In this document: positions 58,850 through 64,000 of the stretch, piece after piece | Position numbering within the stretch: position 1 is the first letter of the stretch | How the letters are laid out: each line of letters begins with the position of its first letter | Source of the DNA: Corallococcus sp. | GTDB lineage: Bacteria; Bacillota; Clostridia; Christensenellales; CAG-314 | NCBI GenBank assembly: GCA_023665205.1 | Contig: JAMPEJ010000001.1 | Coordinates: 78,955-142,954, forward strand | Direction of reading: 5' to 3' | Length of the DNA: 64,000 bases | Program-made: the position numbers and the translations under genes | Notes under the pieces: model-generated | Told to the model about the DNA's origin: nothing | The model's database searches: none | What the model saw: only the letters and a program-made list of their open reading frames with translations

Positions 58850-59554
58850 TTACCTCTCTTGTAAAATTACGCCGCTATCCCTGCCCGTTGCCAGACGAAC
58901 GATATCACGCGCGACGTCTTCCGGCAACAACACCGACGTTCCGTTTTCACGACAAAATTCTTCAATTTCGTTTTTTGAAAGATTCGCGCACATATCCGTC
59001 ATAACTATCGGAGGGCAAACGCAATTGACGCGAACGCCGCAAAAAGCCAATTCTTCCGACAAACTCTTTGTCAAACCCACTATGGCGTGCTTGCTCATAG
59101 AATACACGCTTTCGCACGAAGCGCCGGAAACTCCCCAAATAGACGATACGTTTACGATAGCGCCGCCGCCTTGCCTTAAAAAAAACGGTATAGCGTGCTG
59201 GCAACACAAAAAAGTACCTTTTGCATTGATATCCATAACGCGATTGTATTGATCGTCCGTTACGTTTTGACACAAGGCAGAAAGAGCAACGCCTGCATTA
59301 TTGACCAAAACGTCTAGCCTCTTAAAAAACTTAGCTACCCAATCAAACATTTCCGCCACTTCCCGTGTATCCGACACGTCAGCCTTATACAAATGAACGT
59401 CGCAACCGCAATCGAGCAGTTCCGTTCTCAGGCTTTCTGCAGCAACTTTATTTTTGTGCCAATTGATCAATACGGTATATTTTTCCCGCGCAAATGCCTT
59501 TGCAGTAGCTGCACCGATTCCTCGCGATCCGCCCGTAATTAAAGCAACTTTCAT
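58850..59554 (-). CDS. SDR family oxidoreductase (FabG-like)
   Basis: TGGSRGIGAA, NNAG, and YSMSKHA active-site context. I chose the ATG at 59554 (MKVALITGG). Confidence 0.85.
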   Translation of the reverse strand: MKVALITGGSRGIGAATAKAFAREKYTVLINWHKNKVAAESLRTELLDCGCDVHLYKADVSDTREVAEMFDWVAKFFKRLDVLVNNAGVALSALCQNVTDDQYNRVMDINAKGTFLCCQHAIPFFLRQGGGAIVNVSSIWGVSGASCESVYSMSKHAIVGLTKSLSEELAFCGVRVNCVCPPIVMTDMCANLSKNEIEEFCRENGTSVLLPEDVARDIVRLATGRDSGVILQER

Positions 59555-59641
59555 ATAAAACGCTCCGATTTCCAATACTATGAGTGACATAGTATTATAC
59601 AAAAATTCCTTTTTTGAAATAATTCAAACAACAAAATTGAA

Positions 59642-61522
59642 TTAATTTTCCTGCAACCTTTCCCATTCTGCAGTCGCTTTTTCAAGTTCAACATTTTTTA
59701 CGTTTACTTCGTCAACAACGGCCGCCAGTTTTTGATAATCTGAAACAATCTCAGGATCGCTCAATTTTGCATTCAACGCCGTAATTTCCGCTTCCAATTG
59801 TGTTATAAACGATTCGCATTCTTTTATTTTACGCGCACGGTTGGTTTGCTCTGCACGTTGTTTAGCGTTGCGAAAACTACTGTCTGCAATGGAAGACTTA
59901 GTGACAACTACTGTAGTTTTTGCGATTCGTCTTGCAGCAAAGTCATCGTAATTTCCGCTGTGCAGTACTATTTTTTCGTTGCAAAGTTCGGCAACTTGAT
60001 CGGCAACGCTATTGACAAAATATCTGTCGTGCGAAACGAACAGCAAAGTTCCCGTATAGCTTTTCAAAGCGTCTTCCAACGCCTCTCGACTTGGCAAATC
60101 TAAATGATTGGTTGGCTCGTCCAATAACAAGAAATTGTAATCTTTTGCCATTATCAATGCCAACGCCAATTTCGCCCTTTCACCACCCGACAGTTCAGAT
60201 ACTTTCTTATACACGTCGTCGGCACCCAAGGTCACTTGAGCAAGCAAGGCACGGACTTCGGTTTGCGACATTCTCATATTATCAAACCATAACTGATCTA
60301 TAACCCGCGCCGTCCCGTCCAAATTAAAGTTTTCCTGATCGTAATAACCTACACGAACGTTTTTGCCGAAAATAATTTTACCGCAATCTTTGGGATCAAG
60401 CGCAGCAATTTTTCGCATTACAGTAGATTTTCCGGTTCCGTTCAAACCCAATAACGCAACTTTTTTTCCGCGGCGAATTTGTAATTCAGCACCGTTCAGC
60501 AACAAACGTCCATCGTATCCCAACGTCAAATTTTTGATCGTAAGCGGAAATTCCGAAGGCTCGCTACCACAATCAAAAATAAATCGCGGCGGTTGCTCAT
60601 CTCGTTTAGGGGTTGCAACAACCTCCATTCTTTGCAACGCTTTTTCTCGCGATTTTGCCATGTCTGCAGTGGACGCGCGCACTTTATTTCGCGCAATATA
60701 GTCAGTCAGTTTTGCTATTTCTTTTTGCTGTTTATCGAAAGCGCGTTGCTCGTTTGCGCGTCGCTCCGCCTTCAAAGACTTATATTTAGTGTAATTTCCT
60801 TTATATGCCTCGATTTTTTTATGTTGCACGTCCCATATCGAAGTACACAACCTATCCAAAAAATATCTGTCGTGCGAAACCACAATCAAAGTGGATTTTT
60901 TGTCGGACAAAAAAGTTTCCAGCCAATCTAAAGTTTTGTAATCCAAGTGATTGGTAGGTTCGTCAAGAATCAGCAATTCCGGCTTTTGCAGCAACAGTTT
61001 GCATAGCGCCGCTTTGGTTTTCTCGCCTCCGGAAAGAGTAGAAACGAGTCTATCTGAGAACTGCGCCATCCCCATTCCGTTCAATACGGTCCTTACTTTG
61101 ACGGTACTCTGATACGCCTCGCAAGCATCGGCCTCCAGCGTCAATCTGTGATATTTTTCCGCAAGCGTAACGTATGCCTCGCCATCAAATGCAACTTTAC
61201 TCATACTTGTTGCAACATCGTTAATTTGCGAAATAAGGGCCGTTTGACGCTCAAATACCTTCATCATTTCATCCAACAAAGTATTTTCGGAAGAAAAATC
61301 GGCATTTTGTTTTAAGTAACCTATATTCAAACCGCTCTTTTTAATAATACTTCCGGAAAATAGAGTCGCTCCTTCGGCAATGCAACTCAACAGCGTGCTT
61401 TTACCTGCGCCGTTTGCGCCAACTAGCCCGATATTATCACCTTCGTTTACTTCCAAATTTACGTTTTCAAATATCGTAACGTCGCCGTATCTAAATTCCG
61501 CCGACTTAATTTGCAATAACAT
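59642..61522 (-). CDS. ABC-F family ATPase (two ABC domains, linker, C-terminal coiled coil; Uup/YfmR-like or ARE-type)
   Basis: Two Walker A motifs (GANGAGKST, GLNGTGKST), two LSGGE signatures, no TM domain, and a C-terminal coiled coil (ITQLEAEITALNAKL...). Confidence 0.9.
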   Translation of the reverse strand: MLLQIKSAEFRYGDVTIFENVNLEVNEGDNIGLVGANGAGKSTLLSCIAEGATLFSGSIIKKSGLNIGYLKQNADFSSENTLLDEMMKVFERQTALISQINDVATSMSKVAFDGEAYVTLAEKYHRLTLEADACEAYQSTVKVRTVLNGMGMAQFSDRLVSTLSGGEKTKAALCKLLLQKPELLILDEPTNHLDYKTLDWLETFLSDKKSTLIVVSHDRYFLDRLCTSIWDVQHKKIEAYKGNYTKYKSLKAERRANEQRAFDKQQKEIAKLTDYIARNKVRASTADMAKSREKALQRMEVVATPKRDEQPPRFIFDCGSEPSEFPLTIKNLTLGYDGRLLLNGAELQIRRGKKVALLGLNGTGKSTVMRKIAALDPKDCGKIIFGKNVRVGYYDQENFNLDGTARVIDQLWFDNMRMSQTEVRALLAQVTLGADDVYKKVSELSGGERAKLALALIMAKDYNFLLLDEPTNHLDLPSREALEDALKSYTGTLLFVSHDRYFVNSVADQVAELCNEKIVLHSGNYDDFAARRIAKTTVVVTKSSIADSSFRNAKQRAEQTNRARKIKECESFITQLEAEITALNAKLSDPEIVSDYQKLAAVVDEVNVKNVELEKATAEWERLQEN

Positions 61523-61534
61523 TTATTCTTATCC

Positions 61535-61615
61535 TCAATACAAATTTTGACGGCAAATGCCGTCAAAACAGTCACGATATAGACAAATTATCCAATCGCA
61601 GACGATACCGTGCAA
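61535..61615 (-). CDS. Candidate 26-codon leader uORF (MHGIVCDWIICLYRDCFDGICRQNLY)
   Basis: AAAGGAGG (61630..61623), 7 nt, TTG 61615. The frame runs through hairpin TTTTGACGGCA/TGCCGTCAAAA (61569..61544). Its TGA (61537..61535) overlaps the GAGGA RBS of the ABC-F gene. Confidence 0.35.
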   Translation of the reverse strand: MHGIVCDWIICLYRDCFDGICRQNLY

Positions 61616-61658
61616 CGGCGAACCTCCTTTATGGCGTTCACGCATATACAGAATACCG

Positions 61659-64000
61659 CTATTTTTTCACTCTTATCTTAAATTTTCTTTTGTTATACTT
61701 TCCGTGGAACAATTTTACAAATGCGAAAAGCACGAAAGGCATAGCCAATATTTCCACCAACAACAACAAAATTTGCTCGCGGTTTAACGGAGCGTATTGT
61801 AACAACCTGCTGATAACAGGCACGCTGACGCAAAGCGTAACTATTGCAAATATACCGCAGTACATTGCCATCTTCCACTTGTTAAACGGTCTGCAAGCGT
61901 AATACAAAGCGAACAGTCCGCCAAACGTATAGGATATCGTAACCAACGTTCCTAACGCTTTCTCATCCGGAATCATACTCGGATTTGTTGCCGATTGCAA
62001 GACGTACAAAGATACGGTAGACAAAATAAATGTCAATGAAGCGGGCAAGCAACGTTTAAGAACGTTTGCAAAAAAGTTGCCCTTTATCAAACTCTCGTTT
62101 GGCTGCAAAGCCAACAAGGTAGTCGGCAACGCCACTACCACCCAGTCCATAAGCATAACTTGACGGTTAGTCAAAGGCGACGTCATCGTCATATCGAATA
62201 AAAAGTGCATAGTGATCAACATCAAGTTTATTACGATAACATACACGGTCTTCATAAAGTACATTGACGTTGCGCTTTGAATATTGTTTACTACTCGGCG
62301 TCCTTCCGCCACAACTTCCGGCAAAGCAGAAAAACTGTCGTCCATAAGTATCAAATGAGAAACCTTTCTTGCCGCATCGCTGCCTCCCGCAAGAGATATG
62401 GAGCAGTCGGATTCTTTCATAGCCAAAATATCGTTTACGCCGTCACCCGTCATTGCAACAGTGCTGCCTGCCGCACGCATTGCACGAACCAAAATCGCTT
62501 TTTGCTCGGGTGAGACTCTGCCGAATACAGTATATTTGGTTGCAGCATCCTTTACTTCATCCTCGGACATACCTTCAAGACTGATATACTTTTCGGCATT
62601 AGCAACGCCAACTCTCATTGCGATATTAGACACAGCCGTCGGATTGTCTCCTGAAATCACTTTGATTGAAACGCCGTTTTTAACAAACCACTCTATGGTG
62701 GAGGGTGCGTCGCTACGTATATGATCCTCTATCACGATAACCGCTACCGGACGGCGCACCGTAGGCAGGGTTTCGGTATTGTAAATTGCCGATGAAGAAT
62801 GGGCAAGCAACAAGACACGTAATCCCTGTTCGGCGTATTTCTTTACCAGATCGTTCACGCGTTCGTTAGGCGTATGCAACACATATTCCGGAGCACCCAA
62901 CAGGTAAGTACCATTACCCTTAAATGACACCGCAGACAGTTTTCTTTCCGATGAGAACGGAATCGTAGCAATCGCTTCCAACGTAGGTTTTTTGGGACAT
63001 CCGAAAAACTTTTTCAAAGCCTTACTAGTCATATTGTCAGCATCAAGCGCCGCATTCATGCTAGAAACGATTTCCCTCACAGTGTACGCCGCACCGTTCG
63101 GACGCAGATCTATACTTTCTTCCACGCGCATGGATCCGTCAGTTATAGTTCCAGTTTTGTCCAAGCAAAGCGTATCCACGCGGGCAAGCATTTCTATGCA
63201 GTACAATTCCTGCACCATCGTTTTTCTCCGCGCTAAGCGCAAAAACGAGGCCGCCAATGCGATGCTCGTCAACAAGAACGGTCCTGCGGGTATCATAGAA
63301 ATTATCGATCCAGCAGTCAAATTAAGTGCCTTCGTATCCAACGACAGCAACGAAAAGTTTTCAAAAGCTCCCTTGCCCGGAACAAAACTGTCGCTTTGAA
63401 TATACAGCGCCGAAGCGTTTACAATATACAAACCTACAGTAAGAGGAACGACGATTATGGCAATAAACACCAAAATACCTTTCAATGCTTTAAGCATTTG
63501 GCTGCGCGGTTTGTTGTATTGTTTTGCTTTGCCCGTCAGATTAGAGATATAGTTAAACTTTCCTACTTGCGTTACTTGCGCGGTACATTTGCCTGACACA
63601 ACGAAACTACCGGCATACAAAGTGTCGCCTACGCGTTTGGTTACAGCGTCGCTTTCACCTGTTAAAATAGACTCGTTGACTTCCACAAAACCGTCGCAAA
63701 TCGTACAGTCGGCGGATATTTGCGCTCCGCTAGCCAAAAACACTATATCGTCCAACACGAGATCATTGACAGAAATCTCCTTATTTTCCCCCTCACGCAA
63801 CACTTGCACTTTAGGCTCGGTGATAAGATTCAGTTTGTCCAAAGTCAGTTTGGATTTTATCTCTTGCACTATTGCGATAGTAGTATTAGCAATAACCACA
63901 GGCAAAAAAGTGCACTCCAAAACCAATCCGTACACGCACAAAATTACCGCTATAACGATGTAAATGACGTTAAAAAATGTAAAAAGATTGGAAAATATTA
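61659..64000 (-). CDS. Cation-translocating P-type ATPase (N-terminus beyond the right edge)
   Basis: CLDKTGTITDG phosphorylation motif, TGES actuator motif, MTGDGVNDILAM hinge, and C-terminal TM helices. The frame is open through 64000; the track start at 63941 is an internal TTG. Confidence 0.9.
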   Translation of the reverse strand, partial: IFSNLFTFFNVIYIVIAVILCVYGLVLECTFLPVVIANTTIAIVQEIKSKLTLDKLNLITEPKVQVLREGENKEISVNDLVLDDIVFLASGAQISADCTICDGFVEVNESILTGESDAVTKRVGDTLYAGSFVVSGKCTAQVTQVGKFNYISNLTGKAKQYNKPRSQMLKALKGILVFIAIIVVPLTVGLYIVNASALYIQSDSFVPGKGAFENFSLLSLDTKALNLTAGSIISMIPAGPFLLTSIALAASFLRLARRKTMVQELYCIEMLARVDTLCLDKTGTITDGSMRVEESIDLRPNGAAYTVREIVSSMNAALDADNMTSKALKKFFGCPKKPTLEAIATIPFSSERKLSAVSFKGNGTYLLGAPEYVLHTPNERVNDLVKKYAEQGLRVLLLAHSSSAIYNTETLPTVRRPVAVIVIEDHIRSDAPSTIEWFVKNGVSIKVISGDNPTAVSNIAMRVGVANAEKYISLEGMSEDEVKDAATKYTVFGRVSPEQKAILVRAMRAAGSTVAMTGDGVNDILAMKESDCSISLAGGSDAARKVSHLILMDDSFSALPEVVAEGRRVVNNIQSATSMYFMKTVYVIVINLMLITMHFLFDMTMTSPLTNRQVMLMDWVVVALPTTLLALQPNESLIKGNFFANVLKRCLPASLTFILSTVSLYVLQSATNPSMIPDEKALGTLVTISYTFGGLFALYYACRPFNKWKMAMYCGIFAIVTLCVSVPVISRLLQYAPLNREQILLLLVEILAMPFVLFAFVKLFHGKYNKRKFKIRVKK

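Follow-up and report, generated by a model that had tools for sequence, protein, structure and literature searches.

The P-type ATPase gene and the ABC-F gene at the end of the window (the whole stretch of 64,000 nucleotides of DNA that was analysed) are separated by a hairpin, which is a genuine conserved RNA stem-loop of the terminator type located between two co-oriented genes. With a probability of roughly 60%, this hairpin would be an intrinsic terminator that acts as an attenuator within the operon, while the Shine-Dalgarno (SD) sequence and the short upstream open reading frame (uORF) running across it would represent an unconstrained overlay. As the hairpin is conserved and the SD sequence and the uORF are not, the arrangement probably represents a common type of terminator or attenuator within an operon and not a novel switch that works by a leader peptide.

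Genomic context and loci compared

The ABC-F protein of the window is identical to one of a metagenome-assembled genome that carries the label 'Corallococcus sp.', and at least 120 proteins of relatives share about 67% identity or more. The window has a G+C content of 37-46%. Its relatives are labelled as Clostridia, Oscillospiraceae or Candidatus Fimimonas, and we treat the host as an uncultured gut bacterium that is similar to Clostridia; in one of the related loci (L010) a spore-protein gene is found close by. The order of the genes is kept in the relatives and comprises PGI, a HisS-like protein, the P-type ATPase, the ABC-F protein, a short-chain dehydrogenase, an alpha/beta hydrolase and an M3 peptidase. 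The ORF of the P-type ATPase leaves the window at position 64000, and judged by the relatives its true length is approximately 858 aa. Two plus-strand ORFs (61557-61787 and 61610-61681) run antisense to the 3' end of the ATPase gene and are not accompanied by any signals.

For the comparison, the window and 16 further orthologous ATPase/ABC-F junctions, i.e., 17 loci, were used. Among these the gap between both genes ranges from 2 nt (L012, with 82% ABC-F identity) to 191 nt (L026), and short gaps are frequent, with 2-50 nt in many relatives. Five relatives were recovered from genome contigs. A protein-guided scan of metagenome contigs yielded no relatives, and an exact 20-mer scan of these contigs yielded six matches that were all unrelated, occurring by chance within coding sequence. 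An exact look-up of the window protein P0001 returned no record.

Layout of the intergenic region

In the window, 136 nt separate the stop codon of the ATPase gene from the ABC-F start codon ATG 61522 on the minus strand, and the features of this gap are summarized in Table 1. The initial annotation had described a near-perfect SD sequence in the gap, a TTG codon seven nucleotides further on that opens a frame of 26 codons, and a uORF stop codon that overlaps the GAGGA motif of the ABC-F gene, and all of these were confirmed. It had also described an 11-bp hairpin at 61569..61544; the hairpin is present, is crossed by the frame and is followed by a U-rich tail, but the palindrome can be folded solely as a stem of 10 bp with the 4-nt loop AUUU (61568-61545), to which the pair G61569·U61544 can optionally be added; an 11-bp stem with a loop of 2 nt is not feasible. 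As DNA, the palindrome reads TTTTGACGGC-ATTT-GCCGTCAAAA, and TTTGTATT comes next. The frame of the uORF is already open from ATG 61645, which would yield 36 aa and is not preceded by an SD sequence, and the uORF ends 12 nt before the ABC-F ATG.

Table 1. Features of the ATPase/ABC-F junction in the window.
Feature	Position	Strand	Basis and remarks
Stop codon TAG of the P-type ATPase gene	61659..61661	-	Sequence; synteny with ATPases of 843-858 aa in relatives
Predicted 5' hairpin of the spacer	61604..61657	-	Minimum-free-energy fold; partly pairs AAAGGAGG and the TTG start; not kept in relatives
Orphan SD-like sequence AAAGGAGG	61623..61630	-	Sequence; 7 nt to TTG 61615
uORF from TTG to TGA, 26 codons, MHGIVCDWIICLYRDCFDGICRQNLY	61535..61615	-	Sequence; start codon TTG 61615-61613
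Stem-loop UUUUGACGGC-AUUU-GCCGUCAAAA, 10 bp and 4-nt loop, core of the element	61545..61568	-	Fold, conservation and covariation
U-rich tail UUUGUAUU directly 3' of the stem, presumed termination zone	61537..61544	-	Sequence
SD sequence GAGGA of the ABC-F gene, ATG 9 nt on	61532..61536	-	Overlapped by the uORF stop codon TGA 61537-61535
ABC-F ATPase gene, 626 aa	59642..61522	-	Sequence, family models

Conservation and covariation of the hairpin

The hairpin of the window has a free energy of -15.8 kcal/mol, and its stem pairs are formed with probabilities of 0.84-1.0 within the whole leader; a comparable palindrome appeared in none of 100 shuffles of the window. Of the 17 orthologous loci, 8 carry it at the ATPase/ABC-F junction, at ABC-F identities of approximately 70-82%, and its free energy ranges from -11.5 to -18.6 kcal/mol across all eight. 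The window, L009, L010 and L011 carry it in long leaders of 100-136 nt, L001, L023, L025 and L027 in short gaps of 44-58 nt. The distance from the ATPase stop codon to the hairpin is 5, 9, 16 or 17 nt in the short-gap loci compared to 57-91 nt in the long leaders. On the other side, the distance from the end of the hairpin to the SD sequence of the ABC-F gene is constant, being 8-9 nt in all eight loci.

In an alignment of seven sequences, 98.6% of the stem cells are paired, compared to 31-59% in register-shifted controls. Compensatory changes were found in this alignment at two stem positions, C-G being replaced by U-A and G-C at one and A-U by G-C at the other, the covariation resting on 7-8 sequences and thus having modest statistical power. 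Two further changes result in G·U pairs, which are formed on the sense strand only (L001, L009). The loop is free to vary, being AUUU, UGAU, CAAU, UUAU, UUUUU, ACUA or AACU, and GCAAUU in L027. A covariance model built from the aligned hairpin sequences matches the 64-kb window once, and its matches in the related loci (104 kb) are confined to this junction; a repeated or mobile element is ruled out by the single copy in the window and by the restriction of the relatives' copies to this junction. An Rfam search of positions 61000-62200 with E-values up to 10 gave no match in the gap.

A U-rich tail follows the stem in all eight hairpin loci (UUUGUAUU, UUGUUUUU, UUGUUUAUU, UUGCUUUUU, UUUGUUUUU). 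In the window the U-tract is interrupted (6 of 8 positions are U), and the base of the stem is rich in A-U pairs. The hairpin is within the top five terminator-like sites of the last 20 kb, and the other sites have similarly interrupted U-tails (TTTGTGTAAC, TTTGCTTTAC). The stem with the consensus UUUUGRCGG...CCGYCAAA is invariant or almost so across species with approximately 70% identity, which is unusual for a plain terminator; this strong conservation could reflect an additional constraint besides termination.

In an approximate neighbour-joining tree the hairpin loci are distributed over two clades, with losses in L002, in L012 and in the clade of L019/L026/L020/L024. From this patchy distribution over 8 of the 17 loci, the element appears to be old yet dispensable. 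The Lys-rich tail at the C-terminus of the ATPase is equally basic in the loci that do not have the hairpin, and a connection between the two was therefore ruled out.

The SD-like sequence and the uORF

The sequence AAAGGAGG is present in two copies in the window, while 1.2 +/- 1.0 copies are expected and at least two occurred in 31 of 100 shuffles; the second copy is the SD sequence of a real 171-aa gene. Combinations of GGAGG with a start codon that opens an ORF of less than 60 aa are found nine times in the window, three of these ORFs having 22-25 codons. The conserved hairpin block is free of stop codons in two of its three frames, and the frame that crosses the hairpin is open because of this coincidence. 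The uORF's TGA is contained in TTGAGG, the motif of the ABC-F gene's ribosome-binding site that is conserved in the relatives.

Among the four long leaders, the block of hairpin, tail and SD sequence of the ABC-F gene shows 90.6% identity, compared to 32% for the upstream part, which contains the SD-like sequence, the start codon and the first 15 codons of the uORF. The 11 C-terminal residues of the peptide, CFDGxCRQNLY, are the translated hairpin, tail and SD sequence, and the loop codon encodes I, Q, L or a stop across these four leaders. An SD-like motif is found in two of them, i.e., in two of the eight hairpin loci, namely in the window and in L010 (AAAGGAG). In the tree these two loci do not group as sisters, the distance from the motif to the hairpin is 54 nt in the window and 22 nt in L010, and the frames that are fed differ. 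In L010, a well-spaced TTG (9 nt) lies in the ABC-F frame, while the frame that corresponds to that of the window starts from an ATG just 2 nt past the SD-like motif. The frame of L011 is open from a GTG codon that is not preceded by an SD sequence, and L009 likewise does not have an SD sequence, its frame being cut by a TGA in the hairpin loop. In L010 and L011, gene callers wrongly prolonged the N-terminus of the ABC-F protein across the hairpin.

The initial annotation had proposed to align the intergenic regions of related genomes, and had named a frame or SD that is not conserved in orthologous leaders as part of what would refute it; this alignment turned out against a conserved uORF: just two of the four long leaders have the SD-like motif, L009 has a broken frame, and in the four loci in which the hairpin begins 5-17 nt past the ATPase stop codon there is no space for a uORF, which is therefore impossible there. 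The sequence AAAGGAGG, the TTG codon and the 26-codon frame are thus probably a lineage-specific, fortuitous overlay. As a counterpoint, the perfect 8-mer SD, its ideal spacing to the start codon and the AAAGGAG of L010 leave room for real translation in these lineages.

Folding of the leader and search for promoters

The leader of the window is predicted to fold into three independent hairpins, i.e., the 5' hairpin that partly buries the SD-like sequence and the TTG codon, a small middle hairpin and the terminator hairpin. In the predicted nascent RNA the 5' arm of the terminator is unpaired and has no competing partner, and when the start region of the uORF was masked in the folding, the terminator hairpin formed all the same. 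No alternative antiterminator fold was found in the folds of the window leader, and as the 5' arm has no competitor and masking has no effect, an antiterminator logic of the kind known from vmlR and cplR would not apply here. The ABC-F gene's own SD sequence GAGGA follows the stem at a distance of 8 nt; it is unpaired in the fold and hence not sequestered.

No promoter-like site was found on the gene strand of the 136-nt gap. The best candidate from manual inspection, TTGCAC-17-GATAAT, matches 8 of 12 positions and is not conserved, and the short-gap relatives do not have the space for a promoter. Manual inspection of the leaders also revealed neither a conserved promoter nor a recognisable cleavage site 5' of the hairpin. 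As there is no room for a promoter behind the hairpin, it would act on the expression of the ABC-F gene, be it as attenuator and partial terminator or as stability element.

The ABC-F protein

The ABC-F protein passes the generic NCBIfam model for ribosomal protection-like ABC-F proteins (NF000355) with 465 bits at a cutoff of 380 bits, while it stays below the NCBIfam cutoffs of every named antibiotic-resistance (ARE) family and of the EttA, YbiT, Uup and YheS equivalogs. The nearest solved structures are those of the E. coli housekeeping paralogues YbiT, EttA and YheS, followed by VmlR, Vga, PoxtA, MsrE and Lsa. In the protein, an arm insertion is present, the linker between the domains is short, and a coiled-coil domain (PF16326) lies at the C-terminus. 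The catalytic glutamates E188 and E469 have a spacing of 281, which we take to be EttA-like and unlike the spacing of ~303-310 in PLSA-type resistance factors (published EQ2 mutants). The ABC-F gene is syntenic in all 17 loci. Together, the EttA-like spacing, the strict synteny and the matches to models and structures point to a core translation factor, although the protein could conceivably be a resistance factor of the short-linker type, similar to OptrA or PoxtA.

An intra-operon terminator as the preferred explanation

The layout is best explained by a Rho-independent terminator, consisting of the stem-loop and the U-rich tail, that would follow the P-type ATPase gene and end 8-9 nt short of the SD sequence of the ABC-F gene. 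The ABC-F gene would be transcribed by read-through from upstream, and partial termination at the hairpin would set the ratio of ABC-F to ATPase transcripts. We infer both the termination at the hairpin and its partial nature from the sequence features described above. Transcription from upstream is most likely since the hairpin lies 8-9 nt before the SD sequence, the gap has no promoter-like site and gaps of 2-42 nt are found in relatives. The relatives with gaps of 2, 21 and 42 nt do not have the hairpin, and these gaps imply co-transcription of the ATPase and the ABC-F genes. In the short-gap loci with hairpin, its position 5-17 nt past the ATPase stop codon is the usual one for a terminator.

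Further properties are shared with intrinsic terminators, i.e., a stem with a GC core to which U·A pairs are added, a U-rich tract behind it, the sense orientation a few to some tens of nucleotides past a stop codon, a covarying stem with a free loop, and a downstream gene that appears to have no promoter of its own. In contrast to typical intrinsic terminators, the sequence of the stem is unusually conserved over species with ~70% identity, the distance to the SD sequence of the next gene is fixed at 8-9 nt, and the element is distributed patchily (8 of 17 loci). It also has to be considered that a translation factor would normally exceed a membrane pump in abundance, and that the sense of placing a terminator before its gene is not obvious. 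Of the proposal made in the initial annotation that the region acts as an attenuator for the ABC-F gene, the conserved terminator-type hairpin before the ribosome-binding site stands, while sensing of ribosomes by the uORF finds no support.

Alternative explanations

It is possible, though unlikely, that the hairpin forms part of a lineage-specific translation-coupled attenuator or coupling device of the pyrBI/pyrE type. A ribosome on the uORF would block folding of the hairpin and thereby result in read-through, and the stop codon 12 nt before the ABC-F ATG would favour re-initiation; in the short-gap relatives, this part would fall to the ribosome on the ATPase ORF, which ends 5-17 nt before the hairpin, and the uORF would have arisen once the spacer had grown to 136 nt. 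The layout in the window, with a strong SD at 7-nt spacing and a frame that spans the whole hairpin and ends in the ABC-F ribosome-binding site, would fit such a device, as would L010, in which AAAGGAG likewise drives frames over the hairpin, and the stop-to-hairpin distances of 5, 9, 16 and 17 nt compared to 57-91 nt in the long leaders. In L012 the ABC-F start codon lies 2 nt past the ATPase stop codon and has no SD sequence, which implies translational coupling at the junction. In E. coli, it was shown that termination drops from ~90% to <10% when the distance from a stop codon to the terminator behind it is shortened from 28 to 5 nt, and that termination is most efficient once the distance exceeds ~27 nt (PMC4824070). 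The initial annotation had regarded an ORF that covers the hairpin as a departure from the textbook layout; this layout is already known from pyrBI, the terminator of which is located inside its own leader ORF (PMC4824070). Thus, the SD-led ORF of the window passes through the terminator hairpin as in E. coli pyrBI, and the upstream ORF of the short-gap relatives ends 5-17 nt before it as in E. coli rph-pyrE. Unlike in these systems, the leader ORF is not conserved here, an RNA polymerase pause site was not identified, the downstream gene encodes a translation factor rather than an enzyme of pyrimidine synthesis, and coupling is perhaps weak in a Firmicute-like host. In Bacillus subtilis, transcription reportedly outruns translation, so that occlusion of terminators by ribosomes may be ineffective in Firmicute-like organisms. 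Coupling is further disfavoured by the long leaders of L009 and L011, in which 57-70 nt separate the ATPase stop codon from the hairpin and an SD-led ORF is missing, the frame being broken in L009, by the SD sequences of the two loci that have one, which are not sisters and in which the distance to the hairpin (54 nt in the window, 22 nt in L010) and the frame that is fed both differ, by the partial burial of SD and start codon in a predicted hairpin, and by the chance frequency of the SD 8-mer; such a device would also lower ABC-F when translation slows. The more far-reaching version, in which the hairpin controls a housekeeping-type ABC-F gene by making the entry of RNA polymerase dependent on the timely arrival of a ribosome, which in short-gap loci would be the one that finishes the ATPase and in the lineage of the window one on a newly recruited SD and uORF, is doubtful.

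A role in mRNA processing or stability, rather improbable as well, would mean that the hairpin shields the 3' end of the ATPase transcript or, if the ABC-F transcript is processed or initiated on its own, the 5' end of the latter, with AAAGGAGG being a stabiliser similar to STAB-SD instead of a start signal. Consistent with such a role, the hairpin keeps a fixed spacing of 8-9 nt to the ABC-F SD throughout the eight loci, this SD is not sequestered, and the perfect orphan SD does not belong to a conserved frame; ABC-F would rise and not fall relative to the pump, which is physiologically sensible. 5' stem-loops and SD-like stabilisers are established in Bacillus, and the junction resembles the 5' stem-loops of aprE and ermC and the STAB-SD of cryIIIA in having a stem-loop close before the ribosome-binding site, and the latter also in its perfect SD-like polypurine tract that is not tied to a conserved gene. 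Unlike in these stabilisers, there is no sign of a 5' end at the hairpin, with neither a conserved promoter nor a recognisable cleavage site 5' of it, and the SD-like tract is not conserved, being found in just two of the eight hairpin loci; the conserved U-rich tail would moreover not be needed for stabilisation, yet it is accounted for by termination. That the palindrome is a DNA operator of a dimeric regulator or part of a promoter, suggested by its perfect 10+10 inverted repeat with variable spacer and by TTGACG, which resembles a -35 hexamer, is highly improbable and was rejected: the imperfect pairs (L001, L009) are G·T solely when read on the sense strand, and the other strand would have A/C mismatches instead, the innermost (apical) stem pair covaries, and none of the eight loci has a -10 element with A at position 2 located 16-18 nt downstream. 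A start site there would also remove the SD sequence, and the conserved neighbourhood does not contain a regulator gene.

The vmlR and cplR leaders contain a conserved uORF of 3-4 codons in a 5' hairpin that controls mutually exclusive structures, and in known ARE leaders, which have such a short or otherwise specific uORF and their own promoter, the SD sequence is hidden by the terminator or by a further hairpin (PMC9226507, PMC10201436); a dedicated promoter and a 5' leader of ~200 nt were used as yardstick. An antibiotic-sensing, ribosome-stalling attenuator as in the leaders of vmlR, cplR, vga(A), lsa(A) and msrD would fit the position of the terminator directly before the ABC-F start, the short SD-led uORF within a 5' hairpin and the generic ribosomal protection-like model that the protein passes. 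By comparison with these leaders, this reading is largely refuted and very unlikely: the uORF is not conserved, antiterminator and anti-antiterminator alternatives are missing, the SD is free, and the gap, lying inside an operon behind a pump gene, does not contain a promoter-like site. The ABC-F protein itself cannot be assigned to an ARE subfamily, as it misses all named ARE cutoffs, has the glutamate spacing of 281, is nearest to the structures of YbiT, EttA and YheS and is part of the core synteny of 17 loci; the antibiotic-resistance context in which the initial annotation had placed the gene is thus not demonstrable. The micropeptide with four cysteines that it had offered as an alternative, of either 26 or 36 residues, is barely credible in spite of the open frame, the strong SD and the four Cys, since the 15 N-terminal residues are encoded in unalignable sequence (32% nucleotide identity), the 11 C-terminal ones are dictated by hairpin, tail and SD with a loop codon that is I, Q, L or stop, and the frame is missing from the other hairpin loci.

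Implications

If the hairpin is an ordinary intra-operon terminator or attenuator, the finding is mainly cautionary, as a strong-looking SD and a uORF across a hairpin before an ABC-F gene alone would not prove an antibiotic-sensing leader, and a comparison of orthologous junctions can tell a constrained RNA element from an unconstrained reading frame. If read-through instead depended on the arrival of a ribosome, ABC-F synthesis would directly report transcription-translation coupling or the speed of the ribosomes, and the junction would show in a simple natural case how a translation factor can be controlled through coupling. The hairpin itself represents a small clade-specific covarying RNA element, which in uncultured gut bacteria keeps a constant spacing to the ribosome-binding site of an apparent translation factor.

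Spacers of relatives without the hairpin

The spacer between the P-type ATPase gene and the ABC-F gene takes other forms in relatives that lack the conserved terminator-type stem-loop. In L012, the closest relative without the leader (ABC-F identity 82%), only 2 nt separate the ATPase stop codon TAG from the ABC-F ATG and no Shine-Dalgarno (SD) sequence is recognisable, which implies that both genes are translationally coupled and that the entire spacer was cleanly lost. The orthologous loci L019 and L026, from relatives at 72-73% identity, carry a leader of another type of ~190 nt, from which the hairpin is absent. Its conserved blocks are AGTTAGT..., CTTGTTTAGGCAATCACC, ...AAAATGCAAAAGA...TTGAGGATATT, and it may represent an alternative regulatory leader or a promoter region.

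In public gene calls for the hairpin-bearing loci L010 and L011, ABC-F has 19 and 14 additional N-terminal codons, respectively, which run through the hairpin. Both extended calls start at TTG codons, one of them located within the stem, and the extensions look like annotation artefacts when set against the conserved start MLLQIKSAEF.

Coordinates of features at the ATPase/ABC-F junctions and elsewhere in the window
Feature	Location	Strand	Remark
P-type ATPase	window 61659-64000	(-)	760 aa in ORF listing
Short-chain dehydrogenase	window 58850-59602	(-)	directly downstream of ABC-F
Sigma-70 consensus promoter TTGACA-17-TATAAT	window 54056-54028	(-)	12/12; scan of last 20 kb
Sigma-70 consensus promoter TTGACA-17-TATAAT	window 47298-47270	(-)	12/12; scan of last 20 kb
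Junction with the 2-nt gap	L012:520-570
Leader of other type	L019:2813-3000
Leader of other type	L026:1310-1500
Extended ABC-F call	L010:4001-4057
Extended ABC-F call	L011:4001-4042

Source genome and neighbouring genes

In the NCBI taxonomy, the source genome and its relatives fall within the Myxococcaceae, under the names 'Corallococcus sp.' or Candidatus Fimimonas. This looks like a taxonomic mislabel, as a G+C content of ~37-46%, Gram-positive-like SDs, a spore-protein gene nearby and the labels of sister genomes (Clostridia or Oscillospiraceae) conflict with that placement.

The listed ATPase ORF begins at an internal TTG, the frame stays open up to the window edge and it matches an 858-aa orthologue from residue 79 on; the gene is therefore cut by the window edge and not by mutation. 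When the C-termini were compared across all loci, most relatives showed a strongly Lys/Arg-rich tail, e.g., KYNKRKFKIRVKK. This tail probably lies in the cytoplasm close to the membrane; it occurs with or without the hairpin, showing no association with it.

Cross-hits are widespread among short-chain dehydrogenases (SDRs). The SDR encoded next to ABC-F scores 178 bits against the NCBIfam model YmfI (EF-P 5-aminopentanone reductase), close behind generic SDR/FabG models. This score lies below the cutoff of 238; if the assignment were true, an EF-P-modifying enzyme encoded beside an ABC-F translation factor would be an interesting link.
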